Below, one piece after another: positions 10,157 through 64,000 of a stretch of DNA of 64,000 bases; the first letter of the stretch is position 1; each line of letters starts with the position of its first letter. The notes under the pieces were generated by a model. That model was not told the DNA's origin and searched no databases. It saw only the letters and a program-made list of their open reading frames with translations. Origin of the DNA: Octopus vulgaris (taxonomy: Eukaryota); contig OX597830.1 of assembly GCA_951406725.2 (NCBI GenBank), positions 78,616,001 to 78,680,000 on the forward strand, given 5' to 3'. Both the position numbers and the translations under genes were made by a program.

Positions 10157-11337
10157 GTTTCTTTATTGGCCACACAGGGCTGCACACAGATGGGACAAGT
10201 AACAAGGTAGAGCTTTTCTTTTGGGGGATGAAGAGAACAAAAAACAAAAGAAAAAAAAGGGGGGTGGCGTAGGTTTTCGATCAAGAGGGATCGTAAAAGG
10301 GAAGAAAAGAACAAAAACAGAAAAAAAAATTGAATAAAATAAAAAGAATAAAAAGAACAAAAAAGAAAAGGAAAAGGAACAAAAGGAAAGAGAAATGAAA
10401 AAAGAAGAAAAATGGGGGAAAAAAAGGGGGAAGAGGAAAAAACAGAACGATCAATAGGGATCGTGTATCACAGTGTTATGATATATGGTGTAAAGGGGAG
10501 AGCAAGTAAGGTTTATCCGTGGGAAGAAAAGCCTACGAAAAAGACCACGGTAACCTTGGTCAATATTGTTATATGTTACCACATTTGTTTGCAAGTGTGT
10601 AACCCTCTGTTTTCAATTTCTGGGTTCATAGGATTATGCTCAAGGTGGCTTCGTCATTCATACGTGCCATCCTTGCTACATTCACCCATCTTTTTTTAAA
10701 ACATTCGCTAGACAAAACTTGCCTCTCTACTCTCACTTTCCTTTTCAAGTGGTACTTGAAGAAGTTGATGAGAGATTGACCAGAGAGGAAAGTGTTTGTC
10801 TCCAATCCTTTCAGACGCGTCCACCAGATACATTCTTTCGCCATAGCCACAAGTATGATGAAAATAGCTCTTCCTTCCCGTTTGAAGGAAGGAGGCGTGA
10901 CAATATTGACGATAGACTCAGCTGATAAACCGACCCGTCCCACACGTGACAGCAGTTGTTCGACATAAGCCCACAGGTCGGAAATTGTTGGACACTGCAC
11001 GAGTGCGTGCAGAACGGTTTCGTCGCTCTGACCGCATCTCGGGCAGGTCGGCCCCGTGTTTCTCGAGCCGTGTCTGTAGAGCTTATCCCGAACGGGTAGC
11101 GCTTCTCGGTAGCACTGCCAGGCCAGGGATCTCTGGAAGTTGTCCATGGGCCCTGGCCCGAAAGTCGTCCTGAACAGACGGGTCAGGTACTCCTCGTCAA
11201 CGTCCAGGTTCGCCCCGAGCTCGTCGTCGTACCTCCCCTCCACTAATCCCCTATAGAATGCTTTGGTTGTGTTGAAGTCACTCAAGGTCGACCCGGGACG
11301 GCAGAGTTGCTTGAGAGCAACGCGACACTCGCGGTGC
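10157..11337 (-). mobile_element. 5'-truncated L1/Tx1-group LINE (ORF2 C-terminus + 3' UTR) embedded in (GATA)n
   Basis: The frame at 10626-11337 encodes a zf-RVT-like region with the CCHC knuckle CPRCGQSDETVLHALVQC. The 3' end is ...ccctgtgtggccaataaagaaac followed by (TATC)n. Confidence 0.85.
10626..11337 (-). pseudogene. LINE ORF2 C-terminal fragment (zinc knuckle)
   Basis: This is the non-repetitive part of track ORF 10626..11480. The YLSI repeats at that ORF's N-terminus are microsatellite and not part of the element. Confidence 0.8.
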
Positions 11338-11343
11338 AGATAT

Positions 11344-11430
<87 letters not shown>

Positions 11431-11431
11431 T

Positions 11432-11779
11432 GTTTCTTTATTAGCCACACAGGGCTGAAAACATAGGGGACAAATGACAAAGCAGGGCTTTTCTTTTCTG
11501 CGAGAAAAAAAAGGTGGGTAGGCTTTCTATCAAAAGGGATCGTAAAAAAACGACCAATAGGGATCGTGTATCACGGAATGTCATGATGTAAAGTGTAAAG
11601 GGGGAAACAGATAAGGTTTATCCGTGGAAAGAAGAGCCTATGGAAAAGACCACGGTAAACTCGGTCAATAATGTCACATGTTAACACATATATTTGCAAG
11701 AAAGTAACTCTCTGTTTTAAATTTTTCCGGGTTCATAGAATTATGCTCAAGGTGGCTTCATACGTGCCATCCTTGCAAC

Positions 11780-14023: not shown

Positions 14024-14085
<62 letters not shown>

Positions 14086-14284
14086 TAATATAGGATAAAA
14101 TTTTTTCGGGGAAAAAAATTTTATCAATGGCCAGCATATCAAAAAATGCCTTTAAAAGTAAAATTTATACATAATTTACAAGATAAGGGCAGAAGAAAAA
14201 TTCTAATGCCAAATATGCCGAAACAAAAAAATTGGTGCTTGCTTTTTCCGTGGGTATGAGTAAATATTTCATTTATATCTCGCG

Positions 14285-14348
14285 TATTTGCTGCTGAAGA
14301 GGGGAAAATTTCTTATGAATTAACCCCGAAATTGGATCAATACGGTAA
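14285..14348 (+). ncRNA. Type I minimal hammerhead ribozyme, copy 1
   Basis: ttgctg CTGAAGA gggg...cccc GAAA ttg-gat-caa TA cggtaa. Stems I, II and III can all be paired. Confidence 0.8.
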
Positions 14349-14749
14349 TAACGAATTTTTTAGAGATTTCTATCGGTTTGTTTCGAGACGCATAAATTAT
14401 AATGGTTATCAACAATTTTTTGTTTCGGCATATTTGGCATTAGAATTTTTCTTCTGCCCTTATCTTGTAAATTATGTATAAATTTTACCTTTAAAGGCAT
14501 TTTTTGATATGCTGGCCATTGACAAAATTTTTTTCCCGAAAAATTTTTTATCCTATATTAATTATAAATAGATTAGTGTTCACTTCCGGAATCTATCACT
14601 CTGTGAAAGTTTCTAGTTCGAATCACACGAGTCTCGAGGTGCGCCGAAGATTTTTCTATTTTGGATATATTTGGGGTACTTAAGTCAGCTCGGGACTTGG
14701 TGCTTGCTTTTTCCGTGGGTATGAGTAAGTATTTCATTTATATCTCGCG

Positions 14750-14815
14750 TATTTGCCGCTGAAGAGGGGAAAATTTCTTATGAATTAACCCCGAAATTGG
14801 GCCAATACGGTAATA
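14750..14815 (+). ncRNA. Type I minimal hammerhead ribozyme, copy 2
   Basis: ttgccg CTGAAGA gggg...cccc GAAA ttgg-g-ccaa TA cggtaa. Predicted cleavage after AUA at 14807. Confidence 0.85.
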
Positions 14816-14982
14816 ACGAATTTTTAGAGATTTCTATCGGTTTGTTTCGAGACGCATAAATTATAATGGTTGTCAACAATTTTTTGTTTCGGCGTATCTG
14901 GCATTAGAATTTTTCTTCTGCCCTTATCTTGTATATACGGTTGTCAAGCAGTAGTAGGAACAAACACGTACACAAAAATACG

Positions 14983-15048: not shown

Positions 15049-15414
15049 AATTAATCAAAGGACATACTAAGTATATCTACCTGCTGGAAATAACAGTCAA
15101 AACTCTGACTTAAATCGCCAAAATACACTGATAATAAGTACAGAAATCTACCGTCCGAAAGCAGACGGGTTGAGACAATCTCCCAACGTACATTCAAGTA
15201 TTTGAACTCACGTGGTAAAATAGCCTCAGCTCGCCAGTGCAGAAACTGGCCCACGCGAGCCCAAATACTAGAATGTACGTCGGGAAATTGCCTCAGCCCG
15301 TTTGCCTTCGGACGGTTGATTTCTGAAGTTATTATCAGTGTATAGTGGCGATTTAGATAAGAGTTTTGACTATTTGCAGCAGGTAGACATATGTAGTATT
15401 TCCTTTGATTAATT
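15049..15414. repeat. Long imperfect inverted repeat (~165-bp arms) with a small hairpin in the loop
   Basis: Arms 15049-15215 and 15251-15414 are complementary throughout, with scattered mismatches. The loop contains gccagt-gcagaa-actggc. Confidence 0.9.
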
Positions 15415-20055: not shown

Positions 20056-21022
20056 GAGTGTTTATATAAATATATATAAATGTTTATGCTTGTATGTACG
20101 TATATGTATGTATATGTGCGCATGCGTGCGCGTGTGCCTGCTTCTGTATCTCTGCGTGTGTGTATGTCACTATGTGTGTGTTTGTGTGTGTATGTATGTG
20201 TGTGTGTGTATGCGCGCGTGTGTGTGAGTATATCTGTGCGTGCGATTGTGCGGTTACGTACTTATATCACGCCAATAACCATCAGACGACGGACTGACAG
20301 AAACACTCGGACACATAGAAAACATCTTCATCAACGCCAGAAGTTACAAGTTGATGGCTTCAAATATTCCTTCGTGGAATGTTACGGTATAATGTGTAAG
20401 AGATATTTATACATATAACATATACAACTAGCGCCTGCAGGTGTTGCTGGTCTCGTTTTCATCACGGGAATGCAGGCGGGATGATATCTTCTTCAGGGAT
20501 TTTTTTGTTTCCCTTTTCCCCCTTTTTTTTCTCTGGTTCTGATTTCTCTCATATTTGAATTTGACTTACGCGTGATGTATGTATACACATACATAATCTC
20601 TTGTATAAGTGAATACACACATATACATATACATACATGCATGCATACATACATACATATATGTATACATGATCGTATATTTATATTTATAAATGCATAT
20701 ATATATGTATTGCATTGTGTATATTCATAGGGCGGGGTGCTTGAAAAAATTTCACAATAATGCGAACATATGTCTGTTACAGATACACAGGCACAACTTT
20801 CGGTTGAATGTGGGTGAAACTGAATATAGGTGGGTTTATGTTTGTGTTTATCTATCCATCCATCCATCCATCCGTCTATCTTTCTATTTATGTACCCATC
20901 TGCATACACTCTTATATACGTATACATAGAAATATGCACACATGCACATATATATATATATATATACGAGGTTTTTCACGCTGACTACTGATAATTTCTT
21001 TTAAAGATTTTATCCTCAATTG

Positions 21023-21164
<142 letters not shown>

Positions 21165-21328: not shown

Positions 21329-21428
<100 letters not shown>

Positions 21429-21465
21429 AATAAATATATATATATATAGAGATTATATATATAGA

Positions 21466-22979
21466 TTCCCCGCTAGTCTCCTGAAGGAATGTAGACACCA
21501 ACTTGCTGTCCCTCTGACCAACCTCTGGAGAAATTTGTTAGACGCAGGTTATATACCGAAACAGTTTCTATCCCAGTTAGTCATCCCGGTTTTCAAACAG
21601 GGAAACAGATCCCTCGCAGTCAACTATCGCCCAATCTCACTCACCTCCCTCATCATTAAAGTGTTTGAAAGAGTGTTAAGATCAAAGATAGCTGACTTCC
21701 TGGAGACCCACAAACTCCTAAATGCAAATCAGCATGGCTTTCGCTGCGGCAGGGACTGTCTAACACAGCTCTTACACCACATTGAAGATATACTCAAAGC
21801 CTTGGGAACAGGTTGGAACTCTGATGTCATATATCTTGACTTCAGTAAAGCGTTCGACAGGACAGACCATAATATCCTACTCTCAAAATTGGCAAATGTT
21901 GGAATCCGTGGAAAAGTTCTACACTGGATTAAGTATTTCCTGGCGAATAGAACACATGTTGTAGTTGATGGAGTCCACTCAAGCCCAGCAAAAGTCACCA
22001 GCGGTGTCCCCCAGGGGACTGTCTTGGGCCCGCTACTCTTCATAATTTACATAAACGACCTTTCCAGTGTCGTACATTACTGCAAAGTGAAAGTATTTGC
22101 TGATGACACTAAGCTCCAGCAAATCGTCAATGAAGAAGCAGACCGAACTCAACTCCAGTCTGTTCTATATGCTGTGAGTCAATGGGCAGACAGAAACAAA
22201 ATGCAATTGAACGAGGGAAAATTTGAGCTGATGCATTTTGGAAGAAATTCCTCACTAAAACAGCCATACTCTCTTCCTTCAGGGGAACCGCTCACAGCCT
22301 CTAACAATATCAGAGACCTGGGTGTAATTGTTGATGACGATCTCAGTTGGAGTGCACACATCAACAATAAGGTCGATATAGCTCATAGGATGAGTTCCTG
22401 GATCTTAAGAATTTTCCGGTCCAGAGAACAAGGTATCATCATATCACTTTTCTCCTCCTTTGTACGGCCACACCTCGAATACTGCTGCCCACTGTGGTCT
22501 CCCTATACAAGACAAAACATCTCGAGGATTGAATCACCCCAGAGGGCACTCACTAAGCGAATTGAAGGCATGGCTGCTCTCGATTATTGGAATCGCCTTA
22601 AAGCCTTGAAACTCTACTCTCTCCAGCATCGCCTGAGCGGTACGTCATTTGTACGATGTGGAGAATATACCGCCAACTTTGCCCAAACGACCTGAACATT
22701 AGCTTCAAGGTCCATCCAAGACTGGGACCACGGGCCATACGTCCCCTGCCCAATTCAAGATCACAGCATACATGTACACTGCAACATAATTTCTTTTCCT
22801 CAACAGGCCCCGCCTTATTTAACATTGTCCCGAAAGAGATCAAAGAGGAAAAGGATCCCATCAACTTTAAACGGAGTCTGGATAGATTCCTTCAAGGAAT
22901 ACCAGATAAGCCACCTATAATTGGATACAACTCACCCAACAAAAACTCACTACTTGAATGGACCATAAACAAATCTTGA
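21466..22979 (+). pseudogene. LINE reverse transcriptase, N-terminally truncated, one frameshift near 22633
   Basis: The frame is open from 21466 (FPASLLKEC...). Track ORFs 21535..22695 and 22656..22979 join as ...YSLQHR[R]ERYVICTMWRI if one base is restored. Confidence 0.88.
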
Positions 22980-28969: not shown

Positions 28970-29436
28970 ACGTTAGCCATCATGGCGGCTTGTGTTAGTC
29001 TATGTATGTTGGCCATTATTACCGCGTGTGTTATTTTTTCTGTGTGAGGTAGCGAAGATGGTAGCTTTATGTTGCTGTGTATCTCAGCCATCATGGCGAC
29101 TTATTTTACTGTATGTGTGTTGGCTGCTATGGCAGCTTATATTTTCTCTTCGATAGCCATGATGGCGGCTTCTGTTAGTCTAGTTATGTAGGCCGTTATA
29201 CGCTTGTATTTTTTCTGTGTGAGGTAACCCTGATGGTGGTTTATACTGCAGTGTATCTCAGCCAACACGGCGACTTAGTTCACTCTATGTATGTTGGCCC
29301 TTAAATCGCCAATATGGTGGCGTCTATGTATATTGGCCATTATTACCGCTTGTTTTATTTTTTGCGTGTGAGGTAACCAAAATGGTAGCTTACATTGCTT
29401 TTGTATATCCGCTATTATGGAGACTTATTTTACTAT
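28970..29436. repeat. Diverged minisatellite, ~35-nt monomer within a ~150-180-nt higher-order repeat
   Basis: gtgtgaggta recurs near 29042, 29217 and 29365. gccat.atggcg palindromes repeat. Confidence 0.75.
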
Positions 29437-35425: not shown

Positions 35426-35610
35426 TAAACATATATATATATATATATATATAAACAAGGAAAAGGAAAGATCCCAAGAAGGGAAGACAGAAGAAAAAAT
35501 TTTTTGGTGGTGGTGCTCAAAGATTATATATATGCGAAGCATGTTGGAAGAAATAGTATTCGAATACTTAAAGTAGAGTAATATGCTCTTATTAAAAAGC
35601 CTTCATCACA

Positions 35611-35650
35611 GCTGTCCGACGAACGGCAACGTGAAACTCTGAGTAACAGT
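35611..35650 (+). ncRNA. 40-nt minimal type I hammerhead motif (U4C core variant)
   Basis: gctgt CCGACGA acg-GCAA-cgt GAAA ctc-t-gag TA acagt. All three stems pair and stem II has a GNRA loop. Confidence 0.7.
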
Positions 35651-35688
35651 TTGCGTGGAGTTTGCAATTTTAATAAAAGTATGAATAT

Positions 35689-46687: not shown

Positions 46688-46720
<33 letters not shown>

Positions 46721-47027
46721 TATACATATATATATATATATATAATTAATTAATAAGGGTGAGAGAATTAGATACTAATTTAATAGTATATTTATTCCAC
46801 ACCAAGTGGCCTAGTGCTACGAGAAACCTGGATTATTATAATATTTTATAACATATTATAATATTTTCACAAAATAAATATAAGAGAGTGTTCACTATAT
46901 TGATCACTCTAGCACCAGTTAATCCAAGAGGTTTCAACCACGAAAAATACATGTTTCCCATGAAAGCCGGTACGACTGTTAGCTCACACGGACAGGGCAA
47001 ATAAAAAATAACAAAAATACAGATTAT

Positions 47028-47105
47028 CTTGGGACAATTGTTTCGCTATTAATGAATTAAATGTAATATTACTTACAGTAATCCATTTGTAGCTCTTCAG
47101 CCAAG
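47028..47105 (-). ncRNA. Type I hammerhead ribozyme
   Basis: cttgg CTGAAGA gcta...tagc GAAA caattg TC ccaag on the minus strand. Confidence 0.9.
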
Positions 47106-47992
47106 GCTATCTTGATGAAATCCACTCAATCACACGCCAGATTTTACCATAACGATAATTACGCGTGCGGTTCAATTGATTACATCGGACGTTATAATTC
47201 AAATGCCCCAACCAACAGCGCGCCAAACTCTCACGGAAAACAAAATACAGCATTTAGAAATAAATGCAGCATAATTATAATTAATTAATAAGGGTGAGAG
47301 AATTAGATACTAATTTAATAGTATATTTATTCCACACCAAGTGGCCTAGTGCTACGAGAAACCTGGATTATTATAATATTTTATAACATATTATAATATT
47401 TTCACAAAATAAATATAAGAGAGTGTTCACTATATTGATCACTCTAGCACCAGTTAATCCAAGAGGTTTCAACTGTAAGTATTACTGTAAGTAATATTAC
47501 ATTTAATTCATTAATAGCGAAACAATTGTCCCAAGATAATCTGTATTTTTGTTATTTTTTATTTGCCCTGTCCGTGTGAGCTAACAGTCGTACCGGCTTT
47601 CATGGGAAACATGTATTTTTCGTGGTTGAAACCTCTTGGATTAACTGGTGCTAGAGTGATCAATATAGTGAACACTCTCTTATATTTATTTTGTGAAAAT
47701 ATTATAATATGTTATAAAATATTATAATAATCCAGGTTTCTCGTAGCACTAGGCCACTTGGTGTGGAATAAATATACTATTAAATTAGTATCTAATTCTC
47801 TCACCCTTATTAATTAATTATAATTATGCTGCATTTATTTCTAAATGCTGTATTTTGTTTTCCGTGAGAGTTTGGCGCGCTGTTGGTTGGGGCATTTGAA
47901 TTATAACGTCCGATGTAATCAATTGAACCGCACGCGTAATTATCGTTATGGTAAAATCTGGCGTGTGATTGAGTGGATTTCATCAAGATAGC

Positions 47993-48070
47993 CTTGGCTG
48001 AAGAGCTACAAATGGATTACTGTAAGTAATATTACATTTAATTCATTAATAGCGAAACAATTGTCCCAAG
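47993..48070 (+). ncRNA. Type I hammerhead ribozyme
   Basis: cttgg CTGAAGA gcta...tagc GAAA caattg TC ccaag. GUC cleavage triplet ends at 48065. Stem III ACAATTGT is palindromic. Confidence 0.9.
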
Positions 48071-48221
48071 ATAATCTGTATTTTTGTTATTTTTTATTTG
48101 CCCTGTCCGTGTGAGCTAACAGTCGTACCGGCTTTCATGGGAAACATGTATTTTTCGTGGTTGAAACCTCTTGGATTAACTGGTGCTAGAGTGATCAATA
48201 TAGTGAACACTCTCTTATATT

Positions 48222-48274
<53 letters not shown>

Positions 48275-59909: not shown

Positions 59910-59951
<42 letters not shown>

Positions 59952-60080
59952 TAAAAAGAATTCCAACCTTGTCTGATTTTCACGTTTTATTTACAATCTT
60001 ATAATGATATATTATAAGATAATATATTATAATTGAATAAAATAAAATGAAATAGTAGAATGTTAAATATTCATTCTGAT

Positions 60081-60125
60081 TGAACTAGTACTTTCATGCA
60101 TTGAATTCTGCAATCTTCGGGTTCA
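60081..60125 (-). ncRNA. Minimal type I hammerhead motif in the PLE 3' terminal region (variant core)
   Basis: tgaac CCGAAGA t-tgca-gaattcaa-tgca-t GAAA gtac TA gttca. Stem III AGTACT is palindromic. Deviations are U4C and a U.U at the base of stem II. Confidence 0.7.
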
Positions 60126-60184
60126 TGTAGTAGTGTTGACAGTCATGCTTCACAATTTTTGACTGTAGCAAGATGAGTGATTCT

Positions 60185-60305
60185 GTGCTATAAATACAGC
60201 TGGGTAGGCTCCAGAGTGCTAGGTTTTGCAAACTGTATTCTGACCAATCAGTGTGTAGTATCACTCAATTACTTAAGCTGATTGGTTGGTTGAGCTGATT
60301 GGTTT
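60185..60305 (-). promoter_or_regulatory. Cluster of CCAAT boxes plus a TATA-like motif upstream of the PLE hammerhead
   Basis: Three ccaatcag motifs (both orientations) and tatttata/tataaata ~65 nt before the ribozyme. Promoter function is inferred only. Confidence 0.35.
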
Positions 60306-60619
60306 AGGCATCACGCTTTGTTGGACAGGTCAAGAGTCCTGTATCTTGACCCTGGCCGAAGCAGCAATTGTTGGGTTATTTTTAGAAATGTTGTAAATAT
60401 CCTTTGTCAGAGATTTTTATATTTTTATATTTCAATTGTCATCATCATCATTGTCAGCACCTTAATTATTGTTGCTAGTGGTGATGGTGGTGGCAATAGA
60501 ACTTTTAACCCTAAATAAGATAATTTTCCTGCTATCTTCCTCTTGATCACCTTTAGTATTGTTGTTGTTGTTAGTGGTCATGGTCGTAGCAGTGGAAGTA
60601 ATACCTCTAAGTATTATTA

Positions 60620-62900
60620 TTATTGCTTATTTAGCTTGGGTTCGAATTTATCAATAAAATTCTTTTCTCTGATTTTCCTCTCGATTTCACTTGGGCTGTG
60701 TAATTTGTAGAATGGAAATATTATATATATATTCTGGGTCTCTAATCTGTTGCCGGTGTACACGTGAGCGTTCTAATAGTGCGTTTCCCGTCTGACCTAC
60801 ATATATTTCTTCACAATTTGGGCATTTGATGCAGTAAATTAAATTTCTGCTTTTGCAGTTCATATTCGCGTTTGTGAATATTTTCCCGGTTTTTGTGTTT
60901 ATATATTGACCGGTATGTATGAATTGGCATGTGCCACATCGGCTATCATTGCATTTAGATACCGTGAATGTTTGGTCTTTGTTGCTGAGGTCAAATTTTG
61001 CCTTTGTTAGTAATGTTTTCAAGTTTTTAGGCTGTCTTTTACTAAGTACCATAGCTCGATCCTTGATTATGTCTTTTAATTCATTACTTTGGGCAATGAT
61101 TGGTAGGTTTGCTTTGGCAATGTTGAAGATATTCTGGTGACATGGGTTGTGTGTCACTATGAATGGTATGACTTGTTCTTGTTTTCCTCTTCCTTGGGTT
61201 GTCCTAAGTTGTTGTATAGGTATTTTTATAGCCCGCTGTATGCCATTTTCTATAAGTAGAGATGGGTATTTTTGTTTGAGCAAAAATTCTCTTAGTTCTA
61301 TTAGGCGTTTGTTCCTGATATTTGCATCTTCTACAATAGTACAAATTCTTCTGGCTAGGCAGTATGGGATGTTACGTTTTGTATGTGGTGGATGGCACGA
61401 CTTAAAATTTAGGTATTGATGTGTGTCTGTGTGTTTATAGTATATATCTGTGGTGATGGTGGTGTCTTTTTTAATTACCATTATATCCAGGAATGGTAAT
61501 TTGGTACTACTCATCTCCTTTGTAAATTTGAGAGATGGGTGTAGGTTGTTCAGGAGGATATTGAACTCTTCCAGAGTATTTAGAGATTCTGTCCAGATTA
61601 TGAAACAGTCGTCTAGGTATCTCTTCCATGCCTTTTCAATATACTTTCTAAATCCAGTGCCATAGTTTACCTCCACCTCTTGGTAGAGTTGTTCTTCTAA
61701 GTATCCCATTACAGAGTTGGCGTAAACGGGAGCAAACCTCGTTCCCATCGCCGTGCCTCTAATTTGGATGTAATTCTTTCCATTGAAGAAGAATGTGTTA
61801 TTTTCTAGAATAAGTTTGACTGTGTCTAATATAAATGGCACTGTGAATCTGCTGGGAATCACTTCTCTATGTTTTTCTAACCAGTATTTAATCGCCTTTA
61901 TTCCTAAATCGTGTGGAATATTGGTGTAGAGGCTTACCACATCAAAACTTAGTAAAACTGAATTTGTTTCTGTTGTTTTGGGAAGATGGGACAGGAAGTC
62001 GATGTCATCCCTGATGAAACTGGGTATGTAAGTACATAATGGTTTCAAAACAATGTCAATAAAATTGCTTAGACGGTGTGTAGGGCATGCTGGACCAGCT
62101 ATAATAGGTCTAAGTTTTAGGTCTTTTGGATGTAATAATTTTATGTACTCACTTTCTTGTTCTTTTACTGCCTGTTGAATGTTTTTTGATTTGTGTATTT
62201 TTGGTAAGCCGTAGAAGTTGCTGGGTTTTGGTTCAAAATTGGTGATGTAGTCTTTTTCATTATCCGTAAGTGAGTTGTGGTGTGTTGAAATCAGGTTGTT
62301 GATCTTTTTCATGATGTGGTGGTCTATATTTGCGGGTATTTCACAATAGAAGGTTGTATCCTTCAGTTGGTCTTCAACCAAATCCTTATAGTATTCGGTA
62401 TCCATAATAACAATTGCACCACCTTTATCTGCTTGTTTAATTATTATTGTTTGATCGTTTTGTATACGTTTACATGCAGACATCTCTGATTTGCTAATGT
62501 TTGGCCTAACATTGGTATTGCGTCTAAGGGGAAATTTAGACAGGATATCAATGTATTGGTCAAGGTAGTTATTTCTTCCTTTTGGTGGGGTGAAATTTGA
62601 TTTATTCCTTACTAGGGATTCATCAATCTCATTACTTTTGTTAGCGAAGAATTCTACAAGTCGTAATTTTCGACAGAATTTTTGGATATCCTCCTTTAAT
62701 TCTTGGTGGTTGGCTGTTGGTGTAGGTGTGAATTTCAGTCCTTTTGACAGAAGTTGGATTTCATCATTGTCAAGATCTCTTTTTGATAAATTAATTATTT
62801 TAGGATCTATACGTTCAGTTGTTTGGGGTATGTTTCCTCTTGGATTTTTTCTTTCTCCGGTGTTTGTTGTCCTGACGTAAAAAAATGGATTTTTTTCTGG
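60620..62900 (-). pseudogene. PLE ORF2: reverse transcriptase + GIY-YIG endonuclease, with internal deletion/frameshift near 60725
   Basis: The frame is stop-free from 62900 and includes the conserved IINLS...E..LLSKGLKFTPTP motif upstream of the first Met (62483). The expected C-terminus IFPFYKL...REKNFIDKFEPKLNKQ* is in another frame ending at 60620. Confidence 0.88.
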
Positions 62901-64000
62901 TTATGATTTATATTCCTGTTGATGTTTGCTTGATGAATTTTGCGTTTTGGTTGTGGTACTTTACTTGGTTTCGTTATGTTTTCTGTCTTGTTTTTGGTAT
63001 TATGTATGCTACTTTTCAATTTCTTGTTAGCATTGTTTTTAACCACCTGGAGAAATGATCTGGGTTTACTTCTAGATCTAGATCGGTTTTTTGTCCAGTT
63101 TCTTGTGGGTAATCTCTGTTGAGGTCTTGAAAATGATCTCCTGTTATTTCTACTGCTAATGGTCTGTTCAAAACAATATCTATTTTGTTTGTGCTTTTTG
63201 TTCATGTTGTGTGCATTAGGGTGTTTGCATACAAAATGGGAAGAGTTCTTACCGTAGTTCGTCTTCGATTCGTGGTGAAACGGGTGTTCATGTTGCCACG
63301 TGTTCTGGTGTATGTTGCGTTGGTGAGGTTGTCCACTTTTAATGCTATTTCTCGGAGTTCTGGTGTCTTTACCGTAATTTGTAGCATATTTGTCGAGAAA
63401 TAATTGTTTCCGCTGCCAAAACTTTCTTGATCTGCTTTCTTCTTTTGAGATATCTCTGATCCATAGTTCTCGCATTTTTTCTGCTATATTGCCGGTCGTT
63501 AGTTTGGATATTTCATCTCTGATTTGATCATCGATAGCTTCGTATTTGGCTTTGTAGCGGGATTGTTTAGACAGGGTAATGGAGATGTCGGTCCTGAATT
63601 TTATCAAACTAAGGTCCCATCGAAGTTTAGTTTCTTCCTCTGGTTCTCCTGCAATTTCTTTAATTAGGTACTTCCGAGGAAGTATGGGTGCCGCTAAAGA
63701 TATCCATTTCGAATGTATTTCAGCATATTTTTCGCATTTATATGCCTTCCAGAAGTTTTGTTTTCTTATGTTAAGGAGTTTTTTCCATGTCTTCTGTATC
63801 TCTTCTCTTTTTCGGTGTGCCTCTTTTTCCAGATTTCTTTCGTTTATTTCTGACATCCAAGGAGGTTGTGGTAGGCTTTCTCTTGTAGATTTTATAATTG
63901 TTGGTATCATTTCAGCTAAATTCTTAATTTCAGAGTTTATGTGTTCATTTCCAAGTTTTCCGTCTGTAGACTGTTTTTCTATTTCCTTTAAAATAGAGGA
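62807..64000 (-). CDS. PLE ORF1: charged helical region followed by a basic, R/S-rich tail; open to the window edge
   Basis: No stop between 64000 and 62807. Non-repetitive, >390 codons, same strand as ORF2 and overlapping it by ~94 nt. Confidence 0.75.
   Translation of the reverse strand, partial: SSILKEIEKQSTDGKLGNEHINSEIKNLAEMIPTIIKSTRESLPQPPWMSEINERNLEKEAHRKREEIQKTWKKLLNIRKQNFWKAYKCEKYAEIHSKWISLAAPILPRKYLIKEIAGEPEEETKLRWDLSLIKFRTDISITLSKQSRYKAKYEAIDDQIRDEISKLTTGNIAEKMRELWIRDISKEESRSRKFWQRKQLFLDKYATNYGKDTRTPRNSIKSGQPHQRNIHQNTWQHEHPFHHESKTNYGKNSSHFVCKHPNAHNMNKKHKQNRYCFEQTISSRNNRRSFSRPQQRLPTRNWTKNRSRSRSKPRSFLQVVKNNANKKLKSSIHNTKNKTENITKPSKVPQPKRKIHQANINRNINHNQKKIHFFTSGQQTPEKEKIQEETYPKQLNV

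Follow-up and report, generated by a model that had tools for sequence, protein, structure and literature searches.

Two hammerhead retrozyme insertions in (TA)n-rich DNA of Octopus vulgaris and their possible mobilization by Penelope-like elements

Metazoan non-LTR retrozymes have been described as ORF-less, low-GC tandem units that each carry a type I hammerhead ribozyme (PMC7229834; bioRxiv 10.64898/2026.07.22.740005), with lengths of 170 to 400 nt in the 2020 paper (PMC7229834) and of 51 to 972 bp in the 2026 survey (bioRxiv 10.64898/2026.07.22.740005). Cervera and de la Peña (2020, PMC7229834) named Penelope-like elements (PLEs) as strong candidates for mobilizing animal retrozymes, and Li, Clavereau, and Pollet (2026, bioRxiv 10.64898/2026.07.22.740005) argued that retrozymes are nonautonomous PLE derivatives. 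A term search of the 2026 preprint text gave no account of how retrozymes are inserted, be it their junctions, arms in inverted orientation, or (TA)n as a target, and a literature search at the level of listings, mostly outside subscription journals, found no paper on retrozyme insertion anatomy. Searches on octopus hammerheads and on Penelope twin priming likewise returned nothing on the system described here.

On the side of the presumed helpers, PLE insertions have been characterized as a partial tandem with an inverted, 5′-truncated copy, unequal ends, and a (TA)n bias (PMC8557442, PMC3846280), where the bias is tied to a CX2-5CxxC linker in the protein (PMC8557442). Neptune elements, which belong to the PLEs with an endonuclease (EN+), combine GxKF and DKG motifs, a reverse transcriptase (RT), this linker, a GIY-YIG domain, a 3′ hammerhead, and a (TA)n target (Craig et al. 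2021, PMC8557442). For the green anole Poseidon element PAc, the purified protein was reported to cut and extend both strands at AT-rich DNA, starting at two internal RNA sites, with cleavage of the RNA being dispensable (Frangieh et al. 2024, PMC11167929). In Chlamydomonas, nonautonomous partners of PLEs that target microsatellites have been described (PMC8557442, PMC9977147).

We compared with these systems a stretch of 64,000 nucleotides of the Octopus vulgaris genome (contig OX597830.1, positions 78,616,001 to 78,680,000, forward strand), referred to here as the window, which holds one PLE and two insertions of short units with periods of 465 and 535 nt. Like the published retrozymes, these units are ORF-less, low-GC tandem repeats with a type I hammerhead each, with lengths that lie within the range of the 2026 survey (bioRxiv 10.64898/2026.07.22.740005) and above that of the 2020 paper (PMC7229834), but they are dispersed, inverted 1.4- to 1.5-mers, whereas the metazoan retrozymes described so far in these sources form arrays. 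The PLE of the window shares all of the Neptune features listed above, as well as the separate ORF1 known from Neptune of Fundulus (PMC12602865); unlike in those elements, its endonuclease is damaged and its ribozyme core is altered, and its clade is read from motifs alone. The insertion route that we propose for the short units resembles that of PAc, which works on uncleaved RNA, although the PAc starts are separated by 30 to 40 nt and lie within an AC-rich loop that has no homology to the target (PMC11167929), while the ends of the short insertions are offset by 98 and 132 nt, are AU-rich, and have 2 to 4 nt of TA microhomology. The Chlamys elements MRC1 and Chlamys-N4 are similar to the short units in being ORF-less head-to-tail copies with microsatellite targets and, as proposed for the short units, an autonomous PLE partner; as described, however, they generally share 3′ sequence with their helper, target (C)n or (CA)n, and belong to a clade mostly without the canonical hammerheads found here (PMC8557442, PMC9977147).

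The window is animal DNA rich in microsatellites, with 130 (TA)n runs covering 5% of its bases and abundant short repeats that look like cephalopod SINEs. A structure-based scan yielded six type I hammerhead motifs, five of which fall within the three elements (−60120 in the PLE, +14294 and +14759 in the 465-nt unit, −47100 and +47998 in the 535-nt unit), compared with a mean of 0.125 matches per 64 kb in 40 shuffled sequences, none of which (0/40) combined a palindromic stem III with a stem I of at least 5 bp. The sixth match, a weak and unrelated one at +35616 (35610 to 35651, plus strand), has an altered core and a nonpalindromic stem III and is probably due to chance. Rfam recognized none of the three hammerhead motifs at its gathering score, three local Rfam scans gave no hammerhead, and none was among the matches listed (150 of 290) when weak matches over the whole window were considered, so that the ribozyme calls depend on the motif scan and on covariation. 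The window also contains fragments of LINE-type RT and zf-RVT at 21400 to 22695 (plus strand) and 10626 to 11570 (minus strand), and a 174-bp tandem unit at 28974 to 29298 (1.8 copies, 82%), in which the scan found no hammerhead.

The PLE occupies 59946 to 64000 and comprises the following features.

59913 to 59948, no strand: (TA)n run of 36 nt at the PLE 3′ end
59946 to 60085, minus strand: AU-rich PLE 3′ tail of 138 nt, with ttattaat as its last bases before (TA)n
60081 to 60125, minus strand: type I hammerhead (motif scan, covariation), cleavage predicted after 60086
60687 to 62900, minus strand: frame with RT, CX4CxxC linker, and GIY-YIG (ORF translation, profile match)
62813 to 64000, minus strand: upstream ORF1, in a frame separate from RT-EN, extending past the window edge

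The main frame matches RVT_1, followed by the CX4CxxC linker and, at the C terminus, by a GIY-YIG motif, which is the order expected of EN+ PLEs, with the endonuclease half-deleted in this copy: in comparison to nine relatives, its second half lacks ∼20 codons and carries a frameshift near 60720. A total of 1,263 relatives were found, the best with 65 to 66% identity and the best-scoring named ones from bivalves, and both RVT_1 and GIY-YIG were present in the two relatives tested (up to 66% identity). Several animal PLE sequences appear under the names of bacterial MAGs or symbionts (L081-L083; P0011-P0013, P0084, P0097) and most likely reflect host contamination. Judged by motif criteria alone (GxKF, DKG, and the CX2-5CxxC linker; PMC8557442), the window PLE is of the Neptune type. 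Hydra, with DKT and CxCX5C, and Penelope/Poseidon, without the linker, are ruled out by these motifs. The upstream ORF1 has at least 396 amino acids, gave no match to Pfam, and is conserved in 22 of the 83 relative loci. The 5′ end of the element lies outside the window, so that its own inverted arm is out of view; a tandem arrangement is present in relatives such as locus L017.

As expected of an EN+ PLE, the type I hammerhead lies in the 3′ pseudo-LTR (pLTR). It has a 5-bp stem I (UGAAC/GUUCA), a U·U at the base of stem II, and the palindromic stem III AGUACU. The minimal hammerhead with a palindromic AGTACT that had been proposed from sequence alone is thus present as a motif, but its core reads CCGAAGA, with a C at position 4, where all 14 aligned relatives have U, and the ribozyme of this copy is probably impaired. 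When the motif was aligned with 14 others from relative loci, 88.8% of the cells were paired, helix III was paired in 15/15 sequences, double-sided changes included, and the covariation score was 0.729 versus at most 0.202 in slid controls (15 motifs), a comparison that is partly circular because the motifs of the relatives were chosen by pattern. The closest relative locus, L001, shows the same U·U-based stem II and a 6-nt palindrome. Given the deletion and frameshift in the endonuclease and the substitution in the ribozyme core, the window copy is dead and cannot itself act as a helper.

The insertion of the 465-nt unit is organized as follows.

14040 to 14078, no strand: (TA)n left flank
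14079 to 14230, minus strand: inverted arm, 152 nt, without ribozyme, 3′ end attaattataa adjoining (TA)n
14232 to 14933, plus strand: main arm, 1.5 monomers, 3′ end cttgta followed by tatacgg, inner TTG microhomology
14288 to 14348, plus strand: hammerhead of unit 1, cleavage predicted after 14342
14753 to 14813, plus strand: hammerhead of unit 2, cleavage predicted after 14807

The locus thus reads (TA)n, 152-nt inverted arm, TTG microhomology, 1.5 monomers, tatacgg, and two complete type I hammerheads stand in tandem, one per unit. The right end (14933) adjoins TATA, with no long (TA)n there. In both units, stem III forms an imperfect palindrome of 11 nt, each (14331 to 14341, 14796 to 14806) consisting of a perfect 10-nt palindrome and one extra G; the two are set apart by a double change at the center, AT versus GC, that leaves the palindrome intact, which may be due to chance or to selection on a dimeric helix III. 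Seven internal differences separate the two units (within 14232 to 14933): unit 1 always has A/T where unit 2 has G/C, and going from the first unit to the second, every substitution is A>G or T>C. The inverted arm carries the unit 1 base at each of the two diagnostic sites. The pattern hints at two different units in the template, with change after insertion as an alternative, and its direction could possibly stem from two source variants or from RNA editing. Elsewhere in the window, a stub of 59 nt (20967 to 21025) that is flanked by (TA)n runs on both sides resembles the long end of the 465-nt unit, with a score of 31 that is not above the shuffle 99th percentile of 32. Directly to the right of the locus lies a 366-bp imperfect palindrome (15049 to 15414, 80% arms), possibly a MITE.

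The second insertion, that of the 535-nt unit, has two arms that each exceed one monomer.

46688 to 46744, no strand: interrupted (TA)n left flank, within a copy of a common host repeat
46741 to 47473, minus strand: left arm, 733 nt, 1.37 monomers, 3′ end attaattata adjoining (TA)n
47028 to 47105, minus strand: hammerhead of the left arm, with ACAAUUGU as stem III and a long hairpin as stem II
47472 to 47481, no strand: inner junction, with microhomology of 2 nt and a short repeat templated by the stem II region of the hammerhead
47481 to 48224, plus strand: right arm, 744 nt, 1.39 monomers, 3′ end ctcttatatttat adjoining (TA)n
47993 to 48070, plus strand: hammerhead of the right arm, cleavage predicted after 48065
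48227 to 48268, no strand: (TA)n right flank, after which the host repeat continues

Each arm holds one complete type I hammerhead, and the overlaps among arms and units (342, 198, 193, and 209 nt) are identical. The 535-nt period is also found outside the window: the monomer is matched by 1,982 contigs of run X1 and 37 of run X2, the tandem joint occurs in seven and one of these, respectively, and the stretch or part of it is present in 20 of the 24 listed runs (8 studies, three organism labels), one of which may be the source of the window. No RNA run is among those listed as containing it, and labels that mark a run as possible RNA are guesses. At several sites the window copy has the minority allele of run X1. 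No strand-change joints are listed among the X1 and X2 contigs matching the monomer, and the ribozyme pattern was not found in viral contigs. Raw DNA reads matching the monomer (none in X21, 22 in X22) are too few to gauge the copy number; most of the 22 show short tandem jumps of 28 to 71 nt (47817 to 47913), possibly from a minisatellite derived from part of the unit. The six loose ends listed for X1, ahead of 57 further rows, resemble what is presumably library adapter rather than flanks of the insertion. One X2 contig stops exactly at 47822, the attaattata terminus; this stop may reflect a branch in the assembly, and we left it out of the count. Among the listed variants, none hits the 36 hammerhead positions under constraint, whereas N7 and the extension of stem II do vary; since 15 variant sites in 535 nt would place only about one on the constrained positions, we do not count this absence as evidence.

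Both insertions are head-to-head inverted pairs with their 3′ ends outward and with joints of 2- to 3-nt microhomology. The units are low in GC (0.33), have longest ATG ORFs of 54 and 57 amino acids, and self-pair more strongly than shuffled sequences (z of −5.75 for the 535-nt and −2.83 for the 465-nt unit). They contain no PLE protein matches, which in the window are confined to the 60.5- to 62-kb start bins, and show no DNA similarity to the 83 PLE relative loci. Taken together, the 465- and 535-nt units have the makeup of non-LTR retrozymes, i.e., ORF-less type I hammerhead repeats with predicted self-cleavage. The alternative that they are not separate RNAs but 5′-truncated pLTR ends, in partial tandem, of other autonomous PLE families outside the window would fit with the frequent occurrence of hammerhead-bearing truncated PLE ends (PMC4209133) and with the Xenopus retrozymes reported to match pLTRs (bioRxiv 10.64898/2026.07.22.740005); we consider it very unlikely, given that the units keep no coding remnant and that each arm has the same 535-nt joint, which contigs from two studies contain as well.

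The sequence-only reading had the three elements share one ribozyme grammar. This is true at a general level, as all three carry type I hammerheads, but the shapes differ: stem III has 6 nt in the PLE, 8 nt in the 535-nt unit, and an imperfect 11 nt in the 465-nt unit, and stem II of both retrozymes is long and G-C-based, unlike the U·U-based stem II of the PLE. Moreover, most type I hammerheads of animals have a palindromic helix III (PMC4209133), so that the shared grammar does not single out the window PLE as helper.

Four of the five visible outer ends of the PLE and the short insertions adjoin (TA)≥5, and the fifth adjoins TATA. Counted for one insertion per family in this single window, 3/3 insertions touch (TA)n, whereas 6.7% of all positions in the window lie no more than 5 nt from a (TA)≥5 run (p ∼3e-4); against an AT-matched background, where 41% of AT-rich positions are near a TA run, a fraction inflated by the runs themselves, the same 3/3 gives p ∼0.07. 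Target-site duplications are unreadable within (TA)n, and a comparison of the five ends with all (TA)n flanks in the window gave no convincing new match. Within the PLE lineage, (TA)≥5 is found 50 to 190 nt behind the hammerhead in 6 of 24 distinct loci, versus 0/109 and 0/24 control windows; these 24 are what is left of the 34 loci (out of 83) with a hammerhead behind the ORF once five that are too short and five duplicates are removed. Several of the remaining relative loci continue into a tandem copy.

At the insertion of the 535-nt unit, the surrounding host repeat allows a look at the target. Seven of its eight other matches (right half) have a TA-rich run at the same place, the eighth being short and partial, and the (TA)n target therefore probably predated the insertion. 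Around 60 to 80 nt of the host repeat are missing at this site, and the left flank (46690) stops just before the segment that opens the right flank of the 465-nt insertion (14938), i.e., at the same host-repeat point. A DNA-level fold-back inversion of a small satellite, with the (TA)n grown later from AT-rich ends that could seed TA slippage, is highly improbable, since the insertion interrupts a host repeat whose other copies carry TA there and since the arms begin and end at different unit positions rather than forming a symmetric hairpin.

That the PLE ends in ttattaat followed by (at)n had been noted before and is borne out, with the junction at about 59948. For the short units, the corresponding description, in which both end in attaattata followed by (ta)n, captures one end of each (14079 and 46741) but misses the second ends, which are cttgta followed by tatacgg (14933) and ctcttatatttat followed by (ta)n (48224). 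In the 465-nt insertion, moreover, the attaattata end sits on the inverted arm, which has no ribozyme, while the ribozyme-bearing arm ends otherwise. The distance from end to cleavage site is 138 nt in the PLE, 127 and 225 nt for the 465-nt unit, and about 160 and 292 nt for the 535-nt unit. Because the retrozyme ends lie 127 to 292 nt downstream of the predicted cleavage sites and the arms run across these sites, the element ends are internal start sites and not RNA ends, which contradicts the earlier idea that AU-rich RNA ends do the priming. A search for a shared fold at the four retrozyme ends found none.

Hammerheads, tandem periods, outward head-to-head arms in TA-rich DNA, and central microhomologies are all seen in the sequence itself; the enzyme, the form of the template, and the order of steps are what we infer from them. 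In our main reading, to which we assign a probability of roughly 0.7, the two units are non-LTR retrozymes inserted by a (TA)n-targeting PLE RT-endonuclease priming from both strands at internal AU-rich sites, and the element at 59946 to 64000 is a dead copy of one such family, of the Neptune type. The endonuclease would cut both strands within a (TA)n tract, and each DNA 3′ end would serve as primer for reverse transcription that begins within the retrozyme RNA, at an AU-rich site, with start sites that differ between the two strands by 132 and 98 nt. Since the arms run across cleavage sites, the template would have been an uncleaved multimer or a circle, and the two truncated cDNAs would finally join at their far ends through 2- to 3-nt microhomology. 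We favor PLE machinery because the anatomy of both insertions matches the described PLE insertion pattern; the contact of all three insertions with (TA)n, the probable presence of the (TA)n target before the 535-nt insertion, the linker of the PLE, and the (TA)≥5 behind the hammerheads of relatives point the same way. Against it stand the single insertion per family, the p of ∼0.07 under the AT-matched background, the one outer end with only TATA, the end offsets of 98 and 132 nt, which exceed the 30- to 40-nt PLE tail, the lack of strand-change joints among the listed contigs, the Xenopus retrozyme dimers, of which eight out of nine were reported without cleavage in vitro (bioRxiv 10.64898/2026.07.22.740005), and the LINE RT fragments in the window. 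Inversions with microhomology also arise in LINE twin priming, in which the two L1 pieces come from nonoverlapping parts of one RNA. Retrozyme RNAs could hence have been captured at breaks in fragile (TA)n by a LINE RT or by end-joining repair, through twin priming and without any PLE, as the abundance of (TA)n, the LINE fragments, and the microhomology joints would allow. We regard this as clearly unlikely: unlike in L1 twin priming, the arms overlap, in the 535-nt case by more than one monomer, there is no poly(A) or fixed tail, and the same inverted layout is seen in both independent insertions.

A more specific version of the PLE-based route can be drawn for the template. At the 535-nt locus, a dimeric Neptune protein would have been primed by the two strands of a broken (TA)n tract and would have made two rolling-circle copies of one circular retrozyme monomer, while the 465-nt locus would derive from a multimer of two different units; unrelated hammerhead RNAs would have converged on a short AU-rich start signal, TATTAAT-TATA, and borrowed the PLE family of the window without pLTR homology. 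We hold this scenario to be unlikely in its entirety; if true, insertion anatomy would tell which RNA form retrozymes use as template.

The claim of one mobilization system with the PLE as helper is thus supported as far as a (TA)n-targeting PLE machinery is concerned, more by the inverted anatomy, which the sequence-only reading had missed, than by ribozyme grammar, but the PLE copy in the window is defective. Within the main reading, it is possible, albeit rather doubtful, that the Neptune-type family of the window is itself the helper and recognizes a shared cis signal, a TATTAAT[TATA] terminus with an AU-rich hairpin, in which case the 535-nt unit may descend from the pLTR of the PLE. TATTAAT is found at one terminus of the PLE and of each retrozyme, and when the TATA-ending sites of the two monomers are paired (48 pairs), the pair in use, with 10 shared terminal bases, is alone in reaching 8 or more. 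The remaining two retrozyme ends and the termini of nine PLE relatives, however, lack the motif, and the hammerhead shapes differ. As to direct homology between helper and parasites, which the sequence-only reading had not seen, blastn gave no clear match, but there is a weak, AT-rich similarity of 76 nt between the PLE tail and the 535-nt unit. Its score of 42 has p = 0.002 in 1,000 dinucleotide shuffles (one of six tests) and is reached by 0/204 real AT-rich windows (maximum 33) and by 0/25 tails of relatives (maximum 32). The match, on the other hand, consists almost wholly of A/T and in part of a hairpin, a score of 34 is reached with the PLE tail in reverse complement, and the comparisons of the PLE with the 465-nt unit and of the two units with each other gave nothing (p of 0.29 to 0.48), so we take it as a hint. 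In addition, the window copy is dead while the arms of the 535-nt insertion are 100% identical, and their ages may not overlap.

The helper-parasite idea is already in print, and the PLE-type insertion footprint on two retrozymes adds modest new support to it. The published case for PLEs mobilizing animal retrozymes is built, in the sources cited above, on co-occurrence, shared ribozymes, and pLTR similarity, and leaves the mechanism open. With one locus per family, our observations are a lead and not a demonstration, but retrozyme insertions that follow the PLE pattern, with outward inverted arms, two start sites, and (TA)n, are a more direct type of evidence. Any assembled genome lends itself to a tally of such footprints, and arms that exceed one monomer bear on the question of circles or uncleaved multimers as the template.
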